NCBI GenBank assembly: GCA_963711845.1
Contig: CAVQFR010000014.1
Coordinates: forward strand, 73,644 to 137,643
Reading direction: 5' to 3'
DNA from: an uncultured delta proteobacterium
GTDB taxonomy: Bacteria > Desulfobacterota > BSN033 > UBA1163
Length of the DNA stretch: 64,000 bases
The translations under genes were made by a program, and so were the position numbers. Below are positions 5,335-61,921 of the stretch, piece after piece. Position 1 is the first letter of the stretch. The number at the start of each line of letters is the position of its first letter. Below the pieces are notes generated by a model. It was not told where the DNA came from. It ran no database searches and saw only the letters and a list, made by a program, of their open reading frames with translations.

Positions 5335-5525
5335 TCACACTCCCACTAAGACTAATTCCCCCACTAGCAGGTTGTTGAAAAAGAGACTATTTCTCAGGCT
5401 GCTCAAAAATGCCCAGATGCAAGGCTCCCGAAATCCTGAGGAATGAGGCGTACTTGGAGGTACGCCGCAATGACGAAGGATGAGGGAAACGAAGCAGATG
5501 GGCGTTTTTCAGCAGCCTGCTAGAT

Positions 5526-7030: not shown

Positions 7031-8926
7031 ATGATCTCCTACTGGCTCACGCATATCGTTAACGGACTCTCCTTCGGCATGCTCCTTTTTGTCCTGGCCG
7101 CAGGGCTATCGCTCATTTTCGGGTTATGCCGGATCGTCAACCTGTCCCATGGTTCTTTCTACCTGTTGGGAGGGTATATTGGATTCTCAACGGTTCGCTT
7201 GACCGGAAATTTTCCCCTTGCCGTCCTCCTCGCCATGCTCTCCATGGCCGTTCTGGGAATACTGACGGAACGCATTCTCCTTCGCCGGTTCCGGGTCAAG
7301 CCCCTGGCCCAGGTGTTGTTGACCTTCGGTCTTATCTTCGTTTTTCAGGACGCGGCCATATGGATATGGGGAGGAACGCCTGTCCTGTTGAAGAAACTTC
7401 CTATCCTCACCGGCGCGACGAACCTCTTCGGTTTTTACTATCCGACCTACAGACTTCTCATCCTGTTGATCGGGTTGGTCATCCTTTTCTTTCTCTGGTG
7501 GCTCCTGATACGCACCCGGCTGGGCATCTTCATCCGGGCGGCGGTTGACGACGGAGAAATGGCGAATGGGGTCGGGATTCGCATGAATCTTCTCATGACC
7601 ATGGCCTTCGGTTTTGGCACCCTGTTGACAGGACTGGCCGGGAGTATCGGGGCGCCCTTTCTGGGGGTCTATCCCGGTCTGGATATCGAGGTGCTGCTCT
7701 ATGCGATGGCCGTGGTCATCGTCGGCGGTCTGGGCAGCTTGAAGGGCTCTTTCCTGGGCGCCCTCATGGTTGGCTTAGTCGACTCGATGGCCAAGGCCCT
7801 CTGGCCGGAGACGGGCATGTTTTCGATGTTTGCCCTGATGGCCATCGTATTGATTCTGAAACCTACCGGTCTTTTCGGCCTTCCCATTGCACCCATCAGC
7901 CAGGCATCGGTGTCGGAGGAGATCTTTCTTGAAGCGATTCCTTCAGGCGCCGGACATCCGTTGGGGTGGAGACGGAGGGCGTTGATCCATCCCTCATTCA
8001 TCTGGATCATGACGGCCTGTCTGGTGGCTGCAGGCCTGCTCTGTCCGATCATTCTTTCTACATACTACGTCAGACTGTTTACCCTGGCCTTGATTTGGGC
8101 GATCTTTGCCATGAGCCTCGATCTCATTCTCGGCCTGGGAGGAATCATCTCTCTCGGCCATGCGGTATTTTTCGGAATCTCTGCCTACACGATCGGATTG
8201 GCAGCTCGGTTCTTAACGCCCAATCTTTTCCTCCAGATCGGCCTAGCTCTGTTCGTCTCTGCCTTCGCTGCCCTGGTGTTGGGATGGCTTCTGCTCAGGA
8301 GTCGCGGGGTCTATTTCATGATGTTGACCATCGCCTTTTCCCAGGTCTTTCGGGCGATTGCCCATTCCTGGCGTTCCGTGACAGGCGGAGGGGATGGCCT
8401 CTCCGGTTTTGTACGGCCCATGTGGATGACTTCTGTCGAAACCTTCTACTACTTCGCCCTCTTCGTATTCATCGCCGTCTTTCTCTTCCTCCGATTTTTC
8501 GTCAAATCGCGGGTCGGAATCTCCCTGATCGGGATCCGCGAAAGTGAAAAACGCATGACGAGCCTTGGCTATCACGTAGACCACATCAAGCTTCTCTCCT
8601 TCGTCGTGTCGGGCGGCCTCGGCGGGATCGCCGGCCTCCTGAACGTCTATTTCAACGGGTACGTCAGCCCTGATTATTTTTCTGTGGATACATCCGCACA
8701 GGCCATCATCATGATCATTCTTGGCGGTGCAGGAACATTGATCGGACCCATCCTCGGATCGTTCTTCGTCATCTTCATGCAGAACATCTTGAGCGCCGTG
8801 ATGGAGCGATGGACCCTGGTCCTCGGCGTTCTCTTCATCCTGGTGGTGATCGGCGCCCCGGCAGGAATGGTGGGACTTTGGAGAAAACAATGGCACAAAT
8901 TCAGCCGGAGACAATCCCCGTCCTGA
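7031..8926 (+). CDS. branched-chain amino acid ABC transporter permease, fused LivH-LivM
   Basis: 631-aa polytopic membrane ORF; N-half LivH-like (…VNLSHGSFYLLGGYIGF…), C-half LivM-like (…LDLILGLGGIISLGHAVFFGISAYT…). Confidence 0.9.
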   Translation: MISYWLTHIVNGLSFGMLLFVLAAGLSLIFGLCRIVNLSHGSFYLLGGYIGFSTVRLTGNFPLAVLLAMLSMAVLGILTERILLRRFRVKPLAQVLLTFGLIFVFQDAAIWIWGGTPVLLKKLPILTGATNLFGFYYPTYRLLILLIGLVILFFLWWLLIRTRLGIFIRAAVDDGEMANGVGIRMNLLMTMAFGFGTLLTGLAGSIGAPFLGVYPGLDIEVLLYAMAVVIVGGLGSLKGSFLGALMVGLVDSMAKALWPETGMFSMFALMAIVLILKPTGLFGLPIAPISQASVSEEIFLEAIPSGAGHPLGWRRRALIHPSFIWIMTACLVAAGLLCPIILSTYYVRLFTLALIWAIFAMSLDLILGLGGIISLGHAVFFGISAYTIGLAARFLTPNLFLQIGLALFVSAFAALVLGWLLLRSRGVYFMMLTIAFSQVFRAIAHSWRSVTGGGDGLSGFVRPMWMTSVETFYYFALFVFIAVFLFLRFFVKSRVGISLIGIRESEKRMTSLGYHVDHIKLLSFVVSGGLGGIAGLLNVYFNGYVSPDYFSVDTSAQAIIMIILGGAGTLIGPILGSFFVIFMQNILSAVMERWTLVLGVLFILVVIGAPAGMVGLWRKQWHKFSRRQSPS

Positions 8927-9666
8927 AAATAACGGACCTCTTCAAAAGCTACGGCGGGCTGGAAGTTCTGGCGGACATCCGTTTAGAGATCCATCGCAGC
9001 GAATTACACGCCTTGATCGGGTCGAACGGCGCCGGAAAAACGACGCTCTTCGACATCATCTGCGGGTTTATCAAGCCCTCCCGGGGGAGTATTCAATTTC
9101 TGGGGAAGGAGATCACCTCCCTCCCTCCCTTCAGGCACGCCCATCTGGGAATAGGCCGGACGTTCCAGATCACAACGCTTTTCCGTTCCATCAGCGTCCT
9201 CGATAATCTGCGGCTCACCCTCGAGGCCCTCCCCGCCACCCGCGTCCCCTTCTTGAAGTCAAACAGATTCTCCGAGAAGAACCTGGATCCCGTGAAGGGC
9301 CTGCTCAACACATGGGGGTTGTGGGAAACGAGGAACATCCCCGTAGCCGCGCTGCCGTATGGCGTCCAGAGGCAATTGGAAATCATCATGGCCCTTCTCC
9401 AAAAGCCAAGACTGCTGATGCTCGACGAGCCCATGGCAGGACTTGAGGCGGGAAGCCGAGAATCGATGATGCGCCTGATCAAGGAATCCGGTAAGGAAAC
9501 GACCATCTTTTTTATCGAGCACGATATGAACGTGGCATTGCAACTGGCAGATCGCGTGACCGTTTTGCACCAGGGGAAAATCGTTGCTCAAGGGAGTCCT
9601 GTGCAGGTTCAAAACAACAGAGAGGTTCAACGACTCTATTTCGGGTATGAAGACAAAACGGCATAG
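8890..9666 (+). CDS. branched-chain amino acid ABC transporter ATP-binding protein (LivG-like)
   Basis: Walker A GSNGAGKTT, ABC signature region, Walker B LLMLDEPMAGL; start taken at ATG 8890 (MAQIQPETIPVLKITDLFKSYGG), overlapping permease 3' end. Confidence 0.9.
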   Translation: MAQIQPETIPVLKITDLFKSYGGLEVLADIRLEIHRSELHALIGSNGAGKTTLFDIICGFIKPSRGSIQFLGKEITSLPPFRHAHLGIGRTFQITTLFRSISVLDNLRLTLEALPATRVPFLKSNRFSEKNLDPVKGLLNTWGLWETRNIPVAALPYGVQRQLEIIMALLQKPRLLMLDEPMAGLEAGSRESMMRLIKESGKETTIFFIEHDMNVALQLADRVTVLHQGKIVAQGSPVQVQNNREVQRLYFGYEDKTA

Positions 9667-9768
9667 AGCGTAGAGCATAGAACATAGCGCATGGCGTAAC
9701 TGAGGAAGGCAAGAATGGGTCGAGCCTGCCCGCTGCAGGCAAGGTGCCCTCCAGGCATAGGGTATTAG

Positions 9769-10518
9769 ATGGAAAGTAGACCAATCCTAATAGTGGAAGA
9801 GATTCATACCTATTACGGCCAGAGCCATATTCTCCAGGGGGTCACCCTCTCCCTGGAGCAGGGGGCCATCGTTGCTGTGCTCGGCCGTAACGGCGTGGGG
9901 AAGACGACGCTCATAAGATCTCTCATCGGATTCAACATCCCCAGAGAAGGGAAGATTTATTTTAAAGGTGAGGAGATTACCCGGATGGAGCCCTACGGGA
10001 GGGTCGATGTTGGGTTGGCCCTGGTTCCTCAAGGACGCCGGATCTTTGGCTCATTGACTGTGGAAGAGAACTTGCTTTCCTCGGCAAAGAGGAGAGAAAA
10101 AAGAAAGATCTGGGATCAAAACGGAATTTTTGACCTCTTCCCTCAGCTCAAAGAGAGAAAAAAAGTCAGGGCTTCCCATCTGAGCGGAGGAGAACAGCAG
10201 ATGTTGGCCATTGGCCGGGCCCTTGTCAGCAATCCCGACCTTCTCCTCCTGGATGAACCCACGGAAGGACTTTCTCCTTCTGTGATCCGGGAATTGATCA
10301 AGATTCTTTCTCAACTGGCAAAAGAGGGACAATCCGTCCTCCTTGTCGAACAGAATCTGCAATTTGCCCTGAGTCTTGCAAGTTACCTGTTCATCCTGAG
10401 CAGAGGAAAGATGGTTTATGAGTCAACGCCCTCGGAGCTCTCCCAAAAACCTGAGGTCCAGCTCGCCTATCTCGGGGTTGGCCAGTCCGAGACGAAAGAG
10501 ATGAAACCATCCGAATAA
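9769..10518 (+). CDS. branched-chain amino acid ABC transporter ATP-binding protein (LivF-like)
   Basis: Walker A GRNGVGKTT, signature LSGGEQQML, Walker B LLLLDEPTEGL. Confidence 0.9.
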   Translation: MESRPILIVEEIHTYYGQSHILQGVTLSLEQGAIVAVLGRNGVGKTTLIRSLIGFNIPREGKIYFKGEEITRMEPYGRVDVGLALVPQGRRIFGSLTVEENLLSSAKRREKRKIWDQNGIFDLFPQLKERKKVRASHLSGGEQQMLAIGRALVSNPDLLLLDEPTEGLSPSVIRELIKILSQLAKEGQSVLLVEQNLQFALSLASYLFILSRGKMVYESTPSELSQKPEVQLAYLGVGQSETKEMKPSE

Positions 10519-15030: not shown

Positions 15031-15079
15031 CCCCTCACCCTTCCCCTCTCCCCAGCGGGAGAGGGTGGGAGTGAGGGGG
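15031..15079. repeat. GC-rich palindromic repeat, copy 1 (CCCCTCACCCTTCCCCTCTCCCC / GGGAGAGGGTGGGAGTGAGGGGG)
   Basis: Read directly; immediately 3' of the peroxidase gene; related copies at 28669, 36175, 46536, 56160. Confidence 0.6.
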
Positions 15080-39530: not shown

Positions 39531-39650
39531 CCGGCCTCCCCCAAAAACGTGACTCGTGCCCGTGTCTTGTGTCCGTATCCTAAGTGCCTAAAGTTAAAAG
39601 TACCTAAATTGACTAAAGTCATCTCCTGGCATTTAAGTCACTTTAGTCAC

Positions 39651-40199
39651 TTAAGGCACCTTATTGTGGGCTTTGCCCATGTATCGTTCTTTCTCGCTGT
39701 AGATGCAGCCACAATATTGCTGGCGGTACAGTCCCAGGGACTTGGATACCTCCAGTCCCCTTCTCCATCCTTGCCGAAAATCTTCGTAATAAAATGGAAT
39801 CCCTATCTCTTGAGCGATGCGCTCCCCGGTTTCCTTGATCTGAGCATGATTTTGATGGGAGCTTTGGAGAAGGGTGCTTGAAAATCTATCAAAACCCTGA
39901 TCCCTCGCCTCGCGAGCTGTGGCTTCAAGACGGATTGAATAACAAAACTGACATCTTTCCTTAACTCGATGGGAGACATTTCTTAGGAACTCTTCCAGGA
40001 GATATTCATCCCGATAGATCACCTTCAACCCAACTTTTTGGGAGTATTGTTTCAACGCGTCGAGTCTTTTTTGGTATTCCTGGTAAGGGTGAATGTTGGG
40101 GTTGAAAAAATATCCGATGGCCTCCTCCCCTTTTTCATCGATTCGCTCAAGGGGATAGATAGCACAGTTGGCACAACAAATATGGAGGAGAATTTTCAT
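39651..40199 (-). CDS. queH: epoxyqueuosine reductase QueH (DUF208)
   Basis: MKILLHICCANCAIYP N-terminus and C-terminal YCGCIYS cysteine cluster. Confidence 0.85.
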   Translation of the reverse strand: MKILLHICCANCAIYPLERIDEKGEEAIGYFFNPNIHPYQEYQKRLDALKQYSQKVGLKVIYRDEYLLEEFLRNVSHRVKERCQFCYSIRLEATAREARDQGFDRFSSTLLQSSHQNHAQIKETGERIAQEIGIPFYYEDFRQGWRRGLEVSKSLGLYRQQYCGCIYSEKERYMGKAHNKVP

Positions 40200-55912: not shown

Positions 55913-56078
55913 CACGCCCCCGTTATTGGCTGATAGCTAATGGCTAATAGCTTATAGCTTTTGTCCAATTGCCGTCTGTTATTTACCAAGAAGCTATGCT
56001 CTGTGTCATCTTCTCTCTTACGGAGCACGGTGTAGCACTTTTGAGTCTCGGATGTCAACACGGTGGTTAACCGTAAAT

Positions 56079-57979: not shown

Positions 57980-58025
57980 ATTATAACGATGAACGATAAA
58001 CCGTGAACAACGAACTGTTCATCGT

Positions 58026-60263
58026 TCACGGTTCAATCTTTTTGACCAGAACCTCTCTGGGCTTAACCCCATCGGAAGGCCCCACCACTCCTTCCTCTTC
58101 CATCTTCTCGACGATGCGGGCCGCCCGATTATAACCGATTCGAAATCGCCTTTGAACGAGGGAGATGGAGGCCTGTCCAACCTCGGCGACAAAGGCCACT
58201 GCCTCATCGTACTTTTCGTCGTATTCCGCCTCTTCTCCTCCTGCGGCCTCTTTTTCCTTTTTCACTTCGGCGAGAACCGAAGGATCTAAATAGGAAGGCT
58301 TCCCTTGCTTTTTCCAGAATTCGACAATCCGTTTGATCTCTGCGCCTGAGACAAAGGCCCCATGAAGACGTGTCAGTTTCGAGCTGCCGGGTGGAAGGAA
58401 GAGCATATCCCCGGCTCCCAGGAGGTGCTCTGCACCAATGGCGTCCAGAATGGTTCGAGAGTCTACTCTCGAGGTCACCTGAAATGAAATCCGTGCAGGG
58501 AAGTTTGCTTTAATAATTCCAGTGAGCACATCCACCGAAGGCCGCTGGGTGGCCAGCAAAAGATGGATGCCCACCGCCCGTGCCATCTGCGCGAGCCGAG
58601 TGATCGATTCCTCCACATCCTTCGAAGAGATCATCATCAGGTCTGCCAGCTCATCGATCACCACCACAATATAAGCGAGCCTCTCCATCGGCTCCGTTAC
58701 CTTCTCCTCGTTTCCCTCTAAGACATCCCCCTTCCGTTTATAAACTTTCCCTTTCTCTTTCAGTTCCTTCTCCATTCTCTGATGGTAATGTTCAATATTC
58801 CTCACTCCTTTTTCAGCGAGAACCGTGTACCGCCGTTCCATCTCTTCCACCAGCCACCGGAGGGCAGCCGCCGCCTTTTTCGGATGGGTCACCACAGGCA
58901 GAAGCAAATGCGGGACGCCTTCATAATCGGAGAGTTCTAACATCTTTGGGTCGATCATGAGGAATCGAACCTCGTCCGGAGTCGCCTTAAAGAGAATGCT
59001 GCAGATCATGGCATTGATGGAAACGCTTTTCCCGGAACCTGTTGATCCGGCGACCAGGAGATGCGGCATTCTTGCGAGATCAACGACAAAAGACTCTCCT
59101 GAAATGTCCTTTCCCAGCCCAAAAGACAGTTTCGATTTAAAAGTTCGGAAAGGGTCGGAATCGATGATTTCTTTGAGATAGACTGTCTCCCTGTTTTTGT
59201 TAGGAACCTCAACGCCCACGACGGCTTTGCCGGGGATGGGGGCGACGATACGAATCGACAGAGCGCTCAAGGCCAACGCCAGGTCATCGGCTAAGTTGAC
59301 AATCCGGGAGACTTTCACGCCGGGGGCCGGCTCGAATTCATAGACCGTGATCACGGGACCGGGCCTCACCTCGACCACCTTCCCTTCCACCCCATAATCC
59401 AGAAGTTTCTTCTCCAAGATACGGGAATTCATGATCAAACTCTCCCGGTCGATCTTCTGTCTTTTCTCTACATCGGCTTCGAGCAAAGAAATGGGAGGGA
59501 GTTGGAAGGTTTTCGAGGATTCAAGAAATTCGAACGTCTCTTGTTTCATCTCCTCCTCTCTTTTCGAAGGAAGGGATGGTTTTTCTATGACGACCGTTGG
59601 GGGAATCTCTTTCGCTTCCTTTTTCTCCTGCTTTTGCTTCACCAACTTCCTTTCCCTCTCCGCCCCCTCTCTTCTGACCATTTTGAACGTCCCAATCTTT
59701 CCGATCAGTTTTTGAAGAGACTCTCCCAGATGCTTGACGAGAGAGATGAAGGAGATCCCCGTCCCCAGAACGAATGAAAGGATCAAGATCATCAATAAAA
59801 GGACGGTCGCCCCTGGACGATTAAAATACCGGACAAGATTTCTCGAAAAAATCTCTCCGATAAACCCTCCCATTAAGAGGTCCTGACTGTAGATACGGAT
59901 GGGGCTCAACCATAAACCAAAGAAGGAAGAAATGCTGATGAGGAGCACCGCCCAACCGGCAATTTTCAAAGACAAGTATTTCCACTCCCACCTGAAAATA
60001 AAACTGAAGGCGAAGAAGACCAGAACGAAGGAAATCAAAAAAGAAGGAAAGCCGAAGCTTTGAAAAAGGAGGCCGGAGAGATAGGCCCCGACAATCCCCA
60101 TCCAATTATGAATCCCCTTGACCTTTGCCGAGGTGTAGGAGAAGAAAGAGGGATCCATGGGATGGTAAGAAATCAGACTCAGGAAGAGAAAGACTCCCAA
60201 GGCAATCAGCAAGATCCCCACAATCTCATGTCTCAGCTTTTCTTTGATAGAATCCTCCATCAC
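58026..60263 (-). CDS. ftsK: DNA translocase FtsK
   Basis: N-terminal membrane domain, linker, C-terminal motor with Walker A GSTGSGKS and FtsK gamma-type C-terminus. Confidence 0.95.
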   Translation of the reverse strand: MMEDSIKEKLRHEIVGILLIALGVFLFLSLISYHPMDPSFFSYTSAKVKGIHNWMGIVGAYLSGLLFQSFGFPSFLISFVLVFFAFSFIFRWEWKYLSLKIAGWAVLLISISSFFGLWLSPIRIYSQDLLMGGFIGEIFSRNLVRYFNRPGATVLLLMILILSFVLGTGISFISLVKHLGESLQKLIGKIGTFKMVRREGAERERKLVKQKQEKKEAKEIPPTVVIEKPSLPSKREEEMKQETFEFLESSKTFQLPPISLLEADVEKRQKIDRESLIMNSRILEKKLLDYGVEGKVVEVRPGPVITVYEFEPAPGVKVSRIVNLADDLALALSALSIRIVAPIPGKAVVGVEVPNKNRETVYLKEIIDSDPFRTFKSKLSFGLGKDISGESFVVDLARMPHLLVAGSTGSGKSVSINAMICSILFKATPDEVRFLMIDPKMLELSDYEGVPHLLLPVVTHPKKAAAALRWLVEEMERRYTVLAEKGVRNIEHYHQRMEKELKEKGKVYKRKGDVLEGNEEKVTEPMERLAYIVVVIDELADLMMISSKDVEESITRLAQMARAVGIHLLLATQRPSVDVLTGIIKANFPARISFQVTSRVDSRTILDAIGAEHLLGAGDMLFLPPGSSKLTRLHGAFVSGAEIKRIVEFWKKQGKPSYLDPSVLAEVKKEKEAAGGEEAEYDEKYDEAVAFVAEVGQASISLVQRRFRIGYNRAARIVEKMEEEGVVGPSDGVKPREVLVKKIEP

Positions 60264-60991
60264 TGTTTTTCCCCGCTCTCTTCCTGAGAGATCAACTTAA
60301 AGTTCTCGGAGATCGTATCTCTCACCTTCTTCATCAAGGACTCCCTATCCTTTAAAGAATAACGTTGGATCTCGATGGGGTGCCCCACGAACATTCGAAT
60401 CCCTCCGGGGCGAGCAGTCAAACTATCCTTCGGCATGATGTCCCGGCTTCCACTGATCGCAACCGGAACGATAGGAACCTTGGACTTAATCGCCAAGGTG
60501 AACCCTCCTTTTTTAAAAGGCAGAATCGAGCCATCCGGACTTCTTGACCCCTCAGGAAAGATGACCACGGACATTCCATCTCGAATCTTCTGAGCTGCCT
60601 CGTTCATAGCCTCCACGGTGTCCCGAGTTCCCCCCCGATCGATACTGATATATCCTACGGCGGCCATCGTCCAACCTAAGAATGGAACGGAAAAGAGCTC
60701 CTTCTTAGCCAACCATTTAAACTGATAGGGAAGATGGCCCAGCAAGGTAAAGATATCATAGAAACCCTGATGGTTTGACATAAAGATGTAGGGACCTGCC
60801 GCATTCAGATGCTCCATCCCTTCTACCCTGACCTTCACCCGGTTGGCCAGCAGAGCAATTTTTCCCCAGAGTTTTGCACAATAATGACCCGCTCTTCCCT
60901 TTCGGTCAAAGGGATAGGTCATGAAAGTAAACACTCCCAGGACCAGTGTGGCGACGACAATGCAAGACCAAACAAAGATTGTGCGAATCAT
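60260..60991 (-). CDS. 1-acyl-sn-glycerol-3-phosphate acyltransferase (PlsC family)
   Basis: Acyltransferase motifs NHQGFYD (H-x4-D) and FPEGSRS; start taken at MIRTIFVW because upstream ORF extension is encoded by tandem repeats. Confidence 0.75.
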   Translation of the reverse strand: MIRTIFVWSCIVVATLVLGVFTFMTYPFDRKGRAGHYCAKLWGKIALLANRVKVRVEGMEHLNAAGPYIFMSNHQGFYDIFTLLGHLPYQFKWLAKKELFSVPFLGWTMAAVGYISIDRGGTRDTVEAMNEAAQKIRDGMSVVIFPEGSRSPDGSILPFKKGGFTLAIKSKVPIVPVAISGSRDIMPKDSLTARPGGIRMFVGHPIEIQRYSLKDRESLMKKVRDTISENFKLISQEESGEKQ

Positions 60992-61013
60992 CAGCTTCGC
61001 TTCGCTCAGAAGA

Positions 61014-61045
61014 GGAATATTGGAATACTGGAATATTGGAATATT
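61014..61045. repeat. four tandem octamers GGAATATT/GGAATACT
   Basis: ggaatattggaatactggaatattggaatatt read directly, about 25 bp upstream of the preferred plsC start. Confidence 0.6.
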
Positions 61046-61085
61046 GCACGATAGAACAAAAGGTCTTCTCTGTTCAATTCCATAC

Positions 61086-61142
61086 CCATTATTCCATTCT
61101 TCCATTCTTCCATATTCCATTACTCCATCATTTCATCATTCC
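61086..61142. repeat. tandem CCATT(C/A)TT-type octamer repeats
   Basis: ccattattccattcttccattcttccatattccattactccatcatttcatcattcc. Confidence 0.55.
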
Positions 61143-61147
61143 TGCTG

Positions 61148-61921
61148 TTAGATTCTCTTCTCCAATTCCTTGAGGATGGCACTCACTTCTTCCTTAATTT
61201 TTTCGTCAATGTCGTACGGAGATTTCCCTTCCCTATCCGATTGAAGAACCTTAGGATTAAAACTCATGTGGCCTAAAACCGGAAAATCGGAAAGGTTTTC
61301 CTCAATAATCCTTCTGTCTTCTTCTGAAGTCACTTTGTTTCCAACGATCATTATTTTCTTAATATGTAGATCTTCTCCCAGTTTCTTGATCTGCCTGGCT
61401 GTGTTGATGGCCCTCTGCCCTGGTTCCACGACGATGACGAGAGCATCCACATATCCTGTGCTTCCTCTTCCGAGGTGTTCCAAACCTGCCTCCATATCAA
61501 TGATCAGGACTTCCTCCCTCTGAACGAGAAGGTGACGAACCAGATTCTTCAGGAGGACATTCTCCGGGCAGAAGCAGCCCCCTCCTCCCTGGGGGATACA
61601 ACCCAAGAGAAGGAGTTTAACCCCTTGATAAACGACTCCCATGTCATCAGGAATATCATCCACTTTGGGATTAAGTTTGAACATCGTCCCATAGCTCCCT
61701 TTTTTGGCACCCGTTCGCTCTTCAATCATGGAAGTCATCGAGGCAATGGGCGAGAGTTTGGCGAGAGCTTCTTTGGGAAGGCCGATGGCCGAAGCTAGGT
61801 TTGAATCGGGGTCAGCATCAATGGCGAGGACCTTTCGGCCTTGATGCGCCAAAATCCTAGCCAGGACTCCCGCTAGCGTCGTCTTCCCAACTCCTCCCTT
61901 CCCCGAAATCGCGATTTTCAT
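61148..61921 (-). CDS. CooC/AcsF-type nickel-insertion ATPase (MinD/ParA superfamily)
   Basis: Deviant Walker A ISGKGGVGKTT and the CooC-characteristic CxC motif (GGGCFCPE). Confidence 0.7.
   Translation of the reverse strand: MKIAISGKGGVGKTTLAGVLARILAHQGRKVLAIDADPDSNLASAIGLPKEALAKLSPIASMTSMIEERTGAKKGSYGTMFKLNPKVDDIPDDMGVVYQGVKLLLLGCIPQGGGGCFCPENVLLKNLVRHLLVQREEVLIIDMEAGLEHLGRGSTGYVDALVIVVEPGQRAINTARQIKKLGEDLHIKKIMIVGNKVTSEEDRRIIEENLSDFPVLGHMSFNPKVLQSDREGKSPYDIDEKIKEEVSAILKELEKRI

Follow-up and report, generated by a model that had tools for sequence, protein, structure and literature searches.

A tandem-octamer hairpin between a CooC-like gene and plsC, probably a gene-less member of a class of extragenic elements associated with PF05635 genes

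The spacer between a CooC-like ATPase gene and plsC in an uncultured delta proteobacterium (contig CAVQFR010000014.1, positions 73,644 to 137,643; this stretch of 64,000 nucleotides is referred to as the window) is occupied by two blocks of tandem octamers. These blocks are the inverted arms of one extragenic hairpin, and it is likely that the hairpin is a member, lacking an open reading frame (ORF), of a class that resembles both the intervening sequences (IVSs) of 23S rRNA and the short tandemly repeated repetitive (STRR) elements of cyanobacteria, the full-length forms of which carry a gene of the family PF05635. Arms of the same type are dispersed among unrelated loci and bracket PF05635 genes. 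From comparison of the sequences the hairpin is probably a copy, without the gene, of a cassette that is widespread and apparently selfish, and for that reason is very probably no dedicated control site of plsC; a plsC-specific role for the repeats is very unlikely. The window hairpin is ordinary for its clade, and its interest lies in its class and in the consistent association of that class with PF05635.

A preliminary description of the sequence stated that repeats fill this intergenic space, and this holds. Tandem Repeats Finder places both tracts inside the 156-nt spacer, the first at 61014-61046 (period 8, 4.1 copies, 92% match, unit GGAATATT) and the second at 61086-61142 (period 8, 7.2 copies, 82% match, unit CCATTATT), and they are the top-scoring short-period arrays of the window. 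The 14-mer GGAATATTGGAATA, with up to 2 mismatches, has 5 matches in the window, all of them in the spacer, against 0.9 expected and with none of 100 shuffles reaching 5, while the lag-8 self-identity of the spacer (0.541) is equalled at no lag from 4 to 12 in any of 5000 shuffles (maximum 0.434). The preliminary description overlooked that the two blocks are arms of one hairpin and that both flanking genes lie on the minus strand. The blocks are mutual reverse complements, with arms 72-81% complementary, and the parts of the element are as follows.

60996..61008, plus strand: leader TTCGCTTCGCTCA, between the plsC ATG and the four-unit arm.
61014..61045, plus strand: arm 1, four tandem GGAATAYT octamers (GGAATATT GGAATACT GGAATATT GGAATATT), from Tandem Repeats Finder, repeat search and direct reading.
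61046..61087, no strand assigned: loop of 42 nt with an apical mini-stem at 61054-61075 (GAACAAAAGG...CTCTGTTC), from folding.
61088..61142, plus strand: arm 2, seven units (ATTATTCC ATTCTTCC ATTCTTCC ATATTCC ATTACTCC ATCATTTC ATCATTCC), from Tandem Repeats Finder and inverted-repeat pairs.
61007..61144, minus strand: whole hairpin, 42 bp including 6 G-U pairs, the fold predicted for cooC-plsC mRNA.

On the plus strand the layout is therefore the leader TTCGCTTCGCTCA, four GGAATNNT units, the loop, seven ANNATTCC units, 5 nt and the cooC stop codon; on the minus strand arm 2 consists of GGAATNAT-type units. The complement of the leader, GAGCGAAGCGAA, includes the mini-hairpin sequence GCGAAGC. 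The minimum free energy predicted for RNA of the 156-nt spacer is -44.6 kcal/mol on the mRNA strand; a 171-nt stretch folds at -47.8 kcal/mol (z = -3.8, none of 200 shuffles being as stable), the opposite strand at -38.6 kcal/mol (z = -3.1), and DNA parameters give energies of -16.7 and -20.9. The AU-rich stem has CUCUUCUGAGCG after it and no U tract, and so lacks the form of an intrinsic terminator; no terminator-like site was found on either strand between 60700 and 61500, and a promoter scan of the spacer region found no sigma-70-like promoter. Rfam 15, applied to the window spacer and seven family loci, returned only sub-threshold microRNA-like hairpins and no rRNA match for the hairpin, which lies between two protein-coding genes and not in helix 25 or 45 of 23S rRNA. 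The hairpin has the properties of STRR and of long simple sequence repeat (SSR) inverted pairs, being extragenic, with a unit of 8 nt, imperfect tandem copies and a complementary second array; further arrays of this kind occur elsewhere in the window, and related loci contain roughly one per 10 kb.

The distribution of the repeat unit places this hairpin in a dispersed family. Metagenomes scanned for arrays of four or more GGAATNNT units yielded at least 120 contigs, and among 80 array contigs compared, searches by tblastn with PlsC and CooC found the cooC-plsC locus only in L139 (compared loci carry L numbers throughout). The GC content of these 80 contigs ranges from 27 to 64%, the 150 ORFs that flank the arrays span 202 Pfam families, and the 43 arrays with ORFs on both sides lie in 28 co-directional, 10 convergent and 5 divergent contexts. 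In 38 of the 80 loci the GGAAT block has a complementary ATTCC block on its 3' side, and in none is such a block 5' of it. Because an inverted pair reads alike on either strand, this polarity is genuine, and the window element obeys it on both strands as 5'-(GGAATNNT)n, loop, (ANNATTCC)n-3'. The leader AACTTAG-TTCGCTTCGCTCAC-AATT-GGAAT, or its variant GGGGCTTCGCCCC, stands just outside the GGAAT arm at 18 of 120 unrelated loci among the matches listed, and the motif occurs at 0.83 per kb no farther than 45 nt from arrays as against 0.032 per kb elsewhere (26-fold). The window holds the identical 13-mer leader at the equivalent place, which argues for homology and not convergence. Loops are not conserved among the family copies.

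These regularities bear on the possibility that the repeats are an ordinary long SSR, arisen in place by purely local slippage and unrelated to elements elsewhere. Many bacteria have an excess of heptamer and octamer SSRs, which, as reported through PMC4692102, have been ascribed to polymerase slippage (Mrazek 2007). The periods of arrays across 1.45 Mb of compared loci are chiefly 7, 8 and 9 nt, unit number varies between species, and L024 resembles L025 minus an internal stretch, as after a deletion. Local slippage nevertheless leaves unexplained the fixed polarity of the inverted arrays (38 to 0), the non-repetitive leader common to unrelated loci and the identical arm type found around PF05635 genes; it is already disfavoured and we regard it as decidedly unlikely.

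The mirrored units of the two arms do not match one another at their variable positions, where in-register complementarity is absent (about 50% at every shift), and permuting the units of the 3' arm leaves the fold no weaker, the real order being slightly worse (it beats the permuted mean in 16 of 45 cases, p = 0.0055). The two results together indicate that pairing rests on the conserved core TGGAAT alone, and they rule out arm-to-arm templated copying and compensatory pairing at the variable positions. A further candidate, an RNA with GGA motifs of the CsrA type, is ruled out because orthologous hairpins are built of units without GGA.

Arrays of double-stranded DNA binding sites, for a regulator or nucleoid protein controlling plsC or transcription in general, would have the same character, and the tandem 8-bp metboxes bound by MetJ and the 7-bp heptads bound by the omega repressor offer models of such arrays. 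The conservation of the core alone, the lack of complementarity at mirrored positions, the indifference of the fold to unit order and the frequency of arrays of about four units all agree with this reading, which has been proposed for the paired tandem octanucleotides of Geobacter metallireducens (Aklujkar 2009, PMC2700814). Against it, unit families differ between loci of one genome and at one locus between sister lineages, the sites are mostly at gene 3' ends, as the contexts counted above indicate, and the content of the spacer is polymorphic within the species. We therefore hold binding arrays to be rather improbable. The suggestion of the preliminary description that such tracts can be repeated regulator binding sites is, for plsC, not supported by these comparisons, since the type adjoins about 200 unrelated families and the element is absent both from the available spacer of a conspecific contig and from basal relatives (see below).

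PF05635 (23S rRNA intervening-sequence protein; TIGR02436, 'four helix bundle protein') is the commonest family among the 150 flanking ORFs, with 4 members (L162, L174, L180 and L181), and no transposase is among the 25 commonest Pfam families of these ORFs. In L162 and L181 the PF05635 ORF lies between the GGAAT and ATTCC arms, with the leader present as well in L181. Five additional homologues (L211-L215) were picked on protein similarity and on size or number of contigs, blind to the DNA, and each of the five is preceded by a TGGAATNN array, of 3.6 to 59.5 copies, and followed by a NNATTCCA array; GGAAT-type arms bracket PF05635/TIGR02436 genes at 9 of the 9 loci examined. Three divergent PF05635 ORFs, located on these same array contigs, are bracketed by other heptamers, namely AGTAAGG/CTTACTC in L167, TCGAGTT in L128 and GAGTTTA/GAATTAA in L158, and the unit family of L158 is also that of the cooC-plsC spacer of L002, L008, L019 and L027 and of the ftsK-lolA spacer of L006. 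As a separate observation, L211 carries at 884-1417 about 60 or more TGGAATNN units (>500 nt) upstream of its PF05635 gene and ~16 units downstream, so that arm length can run away on one side.

The association extends to plasmids. The GGAAT-type PF05635 protein found no match among plasmids by tblastn, and a more typical member of the family was then used for the plasmid search. PF05635 homologues on PLSDB plasmids are concentrated in Nostoc, Calothrix and related genera, taxa with reported STRR repeats. Tandem arrays with units of 7-8 nt directly adjoin, on either side, all ten plasmid genes sampled (from Tolypothrix, Nostoc twice, Oscillatoria, Leptolyngbya, Pseudanabaena, Picosynechococcus, Anabaena, Azospirillum and Gemmatirosa); each gene has its own unit, and nine of the ten pairs are inverted. 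On Azospirillum lipoferum AZO_p2 (L230, 13683-15439) the arms of the PF05635 ORF are GAGGACG in 3.9 copies upstream and a complementary array of 4.1 copies downstream; since this gene is located inside a 23S rRNA gene, L230 is a genuine IVS, and its heptamer arms mean that tandem-repeat arms occur in a classical IVS too. In a control region of 50 kb and 40 genes on Nostoc punctiforme pNPUN02, the four-helix-bundle gene is the only one bracketed by arrays, and the remaining arrays are gene-less hairpins.

The base of this association is 22 distinct loci and the one control region. All PF05635 genes examined, at 12 distinct metagenome loci and as 10 plasmid genes in at least five phyla, are bracketed, or have one array where the contig ended. 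The unit period is equal on both sides at 21 of the 22 loci and so is the unit family (bar two further unit types, in L227 and L233); the exception is L128, which has sequence on one side only. The repeat unit differs between subfamilies of the PF05635 protein. No paper tying PF05635 to tandem arrays was found in the searchable literature, which is incomplete, so that novelty is not thereby established.

Two further features of these loci were observed. On the sense strand of the PF05635 ORFs (L162, L167, L158, L215 and L225-L234) the upstream array is nearly always purine-rich and the downstream array its CU-rich complement, and the upstream arrays are often Shine-Dalgarno-like (AGGAGATA, AGAGGAGC, GGAGTAA, GAGGACG), L128 with TCGAGTT being an exception. 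On three cyanobacterial plasmids the bracketed PF05635 gene lies within a CRISPR-cas operon, between cas6 and cas4 in L231 and L234 and between cas10 and cmr3 in L232.

Among relatives the content of the cooC-plsC spacer turns over. The nearest genome loci have PlsC proteins 67-88% identical to that of the window, and a GGAAT-type hairpin occupies the spacer in L012, L007, L015, L025, L024, L081 and L139. L081, the closest by CooC (97%), has the unit of the window in fewer copies and with a different loop, and a loop similar to that of the window is found in L012. Hairpins in the spacers of other lineages are built of units of the 6-8 nt class (CGAAAT, CAAAT, CCAA, GTGATTCG, ATCAGG and AAGGTT), whereas the spacers of L002, L008, L019 and L027 contain two non-complementary blocks with fold z near 0. 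A GIY-YIG ORF occupies the spacer of L001, a DUF559 ORF with GC-rich hairpins that of L006 and L082, and small nested insertions are present in L083 and L015. In the basal lineages L020, L021 and L023 the spacer is just 4-6 nt, and because the co-oriented genes abut there, cooC and plsC were probably an operon. The next spacer downstream, between ftsK and lolA, shows a like turnover of alternative hairpin types, or has none.

The same locus also differs within the species. Contig L209 is conspecific with the window: its plsC differs at 4 of 732 nt (99.45% identity), the PlsC protein not at all, and the start of ftsK matches at 98.6%. Upstream of plsC the contig extends for 156 nt and then stops; this stretch holds the end of a DUF559 gene and a GC hairpin, with no GGAAT array. 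Aligned to 60992-61147 of the window, positions 1-156 of L209 lose all similarity directly upstream of the plsC ATG, and a break at the gene boundary suggests recombination or element replacement at exactly this point. A single-protein tree is too poorly resolved to choose between gradual change of units in place and replacement; the wholesale difference within the species favours replacement. Since its content varies among lineages and differs within a species, the cooC-plsC spacer can be seen as a landing place for small extragenic elements. This turnover and the other content of L209 also argue that plsC does not need the GGAAT hairpin, and the compared spacers show it to be polymorphic and, as far as sequence can tell, dispensable.

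It may be asked whether a hairpin as such, regardless of its sequence, is what is maintained here. On this explanation selection keeps an intercistronic RNA element in the cooC-plsC operon, where it would stabilise the mRNA, serve as a processing site or terminate transcription in part, and the sequence of the element drifts while slippage makes its arms periodic. In its favour, 17 of about 24 orthologous spacers fold as one long hairpin (z -3 to -7) despite their differing sequences, in 14 of 21 the fold of the sense strand is the stabler one (mean -3.4 kcal/mol, Wilcoxon p = 0.026, the loci not being independent), and the window has 8 G-U pairs in the sense orientation and 2 in the antisense. 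The STRR hairpins between hupS and hupL of cyanobacteria, for which transcript stability, translational coupling or termination has been proposed, offer a precedent (PMC2670836). The hairpin is, however, absent from as much of the spacer as the L209 contig covers and from the basal lineages, the spacers with two non-complementary blocks have z near 0, no U-tract terminator is present, and the leader motif and the link to PF05635 indicate an imported element. RNA-level strand selection in the wider GGAAT family is likewise rejected, folding asymmetry being absent there (12 vs 15, p = 0.56). Thus, selection for an intercistronic element appears unlikely.

The preliminary description also raised slipped-strand hotspots and proposed that copy number be compared, and here the outcome is divided. 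Copy number does differ between related species, with 3-7 units in the 5' arm and about 4 in the 3' arm. Arrays comparable to that of the window are, on the other hand, identical across 4 population contigs (L085-L088) and unchanged across 10 others (L215-L224). A contingency locus in which slippage toggles plsC expression would be suggested by tandem repeats directly upstream of a start codon and by their variation between species. The units are imperfect (82-92% match), the equivalent arrays are invariant across these population contigs, plsC is a housekeeping gene, and the position of the repeats is outside both coding sequence and any promoter spacer; a phase-variable switch is scarcely credible on these grounds.

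Several points weigh against assigning the window hairpin to a class of mobile, PF05635-bearing elements. The 42-nt loop has no ORF and no recognisable PF05635 gene or promoter remnant, and since no PF05635 ORF lies between its arms, the window copy is classed as an ORF-less derivative or relative and not as a full element. No PF05635 gene was found in the 64-kb window or in 88 related loci, which leaves a cognate protein in this genome hypothetical. Remnants of PF05635 in the loops of ORF-less copies amount to two weak cases (L203 and L198), most matches being trivial repeats, and because most loops fail to match full-length elements, an origin of the ORF-less copies by deletion stays hypothetical. 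As regards a miniature inverted-repeat transposable element, inverted arms are present in the window element; the flanks that were read showed no target-site duplication, and neither an empty/filled site pair nor a mobilising enzyme was identified. One PF05635 protein present on 14 contigs gave no sign of mobility, all 10 places shown being one locus. In L209, a GGAAT element could lie farther upstream than its contig reaches.

Comparison with known systems clarifies what the element shares with each. IVSs are selfish stem-loops with an S23p ORF in a loop within terminal inverted repeats and are excised by RNase III (Warrier 2016, PMC4990558); IVSs of 23S rRNA with an S23p/PF05635 ORF occur in Coxiella, Leptospira and others (PMC4990558). 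The class described here is like them in its long stem of terminal inverted repeats, in the PF05635 ORF of full-length loops, in being regarded as selfish, in its sporadic distribution and in having short forms without an ORF, to which the window copy is comparable. It is unlike them in that the window copy has no ORF and is located not in 23S helix 25 or 45 but in an mRNA spacer, and in that its arms are tandem octamers with periodic mismatches, in a stem known from predicted folding, whereas the IVS has a near-perfect 28-bp stem. With cyanobacterial STRRs the element shares tandem units of 7-8 nt, an intercistronic hairpin, many copies per genome, variability between strains and no known function; it differs in its octamer unit and in its host, a Syntrophaceae-like member of the Thermodesulfobacteriota. 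The cyanobacterial PF05635 genes sampled here are bracketed by such arrays, and no published link between STRRs and PF05635 was found.

The GGGAATC heptamer arrays of Xanthomonas (Rehm 2015, PMC4692102) and the octa- and heptanucleotide sites of Geobacter metallireducens (Aklujkar 2009, PMC2700814) are likewise intergenic, of about 4 units and often in convergent inverted pairs, at positions that are kept in related species while length and sequence vary. One or a few units are used genome-wide in those organisms, whereas in the clade of the window the unit family differs by locus and lineage, and the published readings of these arrays (G-quadruplex formation, binding of IHF or HU) do not fit the GGAAT unit. 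The repetitive extragenic palindromes (REPs), their bacterial interspersed mosaic elements (BIMEs) and the associated tyrosine transposases (RAYTs) offer another parallel, in that extragenic palindromes lie toward gene 3' ends and in spacers within operons and a protein gene is bracketed by repeats while most copies are gene-less, the window copy corresponding to a solo REP; mRNA stabilisation and cistron decoupling by REPs and BIMEs are a plausible model for the window element. They differ from it in that there is no HUH/Y1 transposase here, the bracketed gene encoding a small four-helix bundle with no known catalytic activity, and in that window-type arms are tandem arrays rather than a single palindrome of 20-40 nt.

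By analogy with IVS stems and REPs, the 42-bp stem within the cooC-plsC mRNA would be a putative substrate of RNase III or a barrier to exonucleases, and either cleavage or a barrier would uncouple the cooC and plsC cistrons with little effect on fitness. Arm length would change through replication slippage.

A wider proposal may be put forward tentatively, although we would not expect it to be borne out in full. Tandem 7-8 nt inverted arrays may be the cognate cis-elements of PF05635/TIGR02436 proteins (S23p, Avd-like; pentameric four-helix bundles), with one unit per subfamily, which would take in the STRRs of cyanobacteria, the hairpins of Desulfobacterota and perhaps also the arrays of Xanthomonas and Geobacter. 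PF05635 is described as homologous to Avd, an accessory protein of diversity-generating retroelements, and as pentameric (PMC10053308 and references therein), and apart from these retroelements no role is known for the S23p/'four helix bundle' family (PMC10053308, PMC4990558). Each PF05635 gene would have arrays of its own on either side, with hairpins that lack a gene dispersed over operon spacers and structured-RNA helices, in a manner like that of REPs and RAYTs or of IVSs. The protein might bind arrays of ~4-5 units, as DNA or RNA, and binding could promote either spread, with a reverse transcriptase as for Avd in diversity-generating retroelements, or RNA excision; in that case a PF05635 protein encoded elsewhere in the genome would act in trans on the window hairpin as its target. 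Short heptamer and octamer intergenic arrays have been recorded time and again, in cyanobacteria (PMC2670836), Xanthomonas (PMC4692102), Geobacter (PMC2700814) and Beggiatoaceae, but there is no agreement on where they come from or what they do. The association of arrays with PF05635 joins two open questions and makes both testable.

The genes around the hairpin, and the reading frame that runs into it, are as follows.

61148..61921, minus strand: CooC-like P-loop ATPase gene, upstream of the hairpin (Pfam PF01656 (CbiA), PF13614, PF10609).
61150-61148, minus strand: TAA stop codon of the CooC-like gene, 5 nt ahead of the hairpin element.
60260..60991, minus strand: plsC, the downstream gene, 243 aa (PF01553), with its true start at the ATG at 60991.
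60263-58026, minus strand: ftsK, with a 4-nt overlap with plsC.
60992..61120, minus strand: spurious N-terminal extension of plsC, 43 codons, from the ORF list, a read-through of the repeats.

The spacer of 156 nt thus extends between the stop of the CooC-like gene (61148) and the start of plsC (60991), both genes being co-oriented on the minus strand. Homologues of the CooC-like protein at 93-97% identity carry the names CooC or CO dehydrogenase maturation factor (NCBI, JGI), and a look-up for sequences identical to the protein of the window gave no record. The preliminary description had also noted that the repeats create a false N-terminal extension, and this proves correct. The 286-aa ORF at 60260-61120 traverses the repeats, while the PlsC alignment begins at residue 1, MIR(T), in all 80 related loci, with the DNA upstream unrelated between lineages. 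The stretch 60992..61120 is unconserved in orthologues, where the spacers differ in sequence and length or span 4-6 nt, and the identical 243-aa product was called independently on the JGI contig L209. Judged from these comparisons, the extension to 286 aa is spurious; the alternative of a true plsC start farther upstream, which would make the repeats coding, gives way to a start at the ATG at 60991 and non-coding repeats. For annotation, operon-spacer hairpins of this type are better taken as imported elements that generate false ORF extensions than as gene-specific regulatory sites.

In most hairpin-bearing lineages plsC is without a recognisable Shine-Dalgarno sequence (60992-61010 in the window, and the orthologous positions), and in L010 the arm ends 3 nt short of the plsC ATG. 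The basal lineages without a spacer have GAGG or AGGAAG beside the plsC ATG.

Other repeats occur elsewhere in the window. Directly after the ftsK stop (58026), at 57983-58028 on the minus strand, lies a hairpin TGAACGATGAACAG-TTCG-TTGTTCACGGTTTATCGTTCATCGTT with AACGATG heptamer arms. Its orthologues have a larger AACGATG hairpin (L003, L005), GAGTTTA/GAATTAA arms (L006), GGAATT/GGGATT arms (L013, L017, L002) or GC-rich hairpins (L008, L011), or the spacer is absent. At 39548-39668 a run of CGTGnCn heptamers, of the type of the CACGG block in the plsC spacers of L002 and L008, is followed by a hairpin with 9-mer arms AGTGCCTAA/AGTGACTAA; this 9-mer family is found with its polarity retained in the Desulfobacterales L036 and L043, with arrays also in L041, L042 and L127. 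GCATAGA is repeated 4.6 times at 9661-9692, as a spacer array just past the stop of the plus-strand gene 8809-9666. GCTAATA is repeated 4.4 times at 55929-55959, just 5' of the minus-strand gene starting at 55915, and L002 has a corresponding array (9980-10010, AGCTATC) at the orthologous distance. A GC-rich palindrome (CCCCTCACCCTTCCCCTCTCCC / GGGAGAGGGTGGGAGTGAGGGG) at 15031-15078 is of a type that stands alone in L003, L016, L008 and L011 and that, in L006, L082 and L209, flanks the DUF559 endonuclease-like ORFs of the cooC-plsC spacer. Finally, a 43-nt inverted repeat at 5395-5519 (CAGGCTGCTCAAAAATGCCCAGATGC... / ...GCAGATGGGCGTTTTTCAGCAGCCTG; 72% complementary, the copies 39 nt apart) looks like another family of extragenic palindromes.

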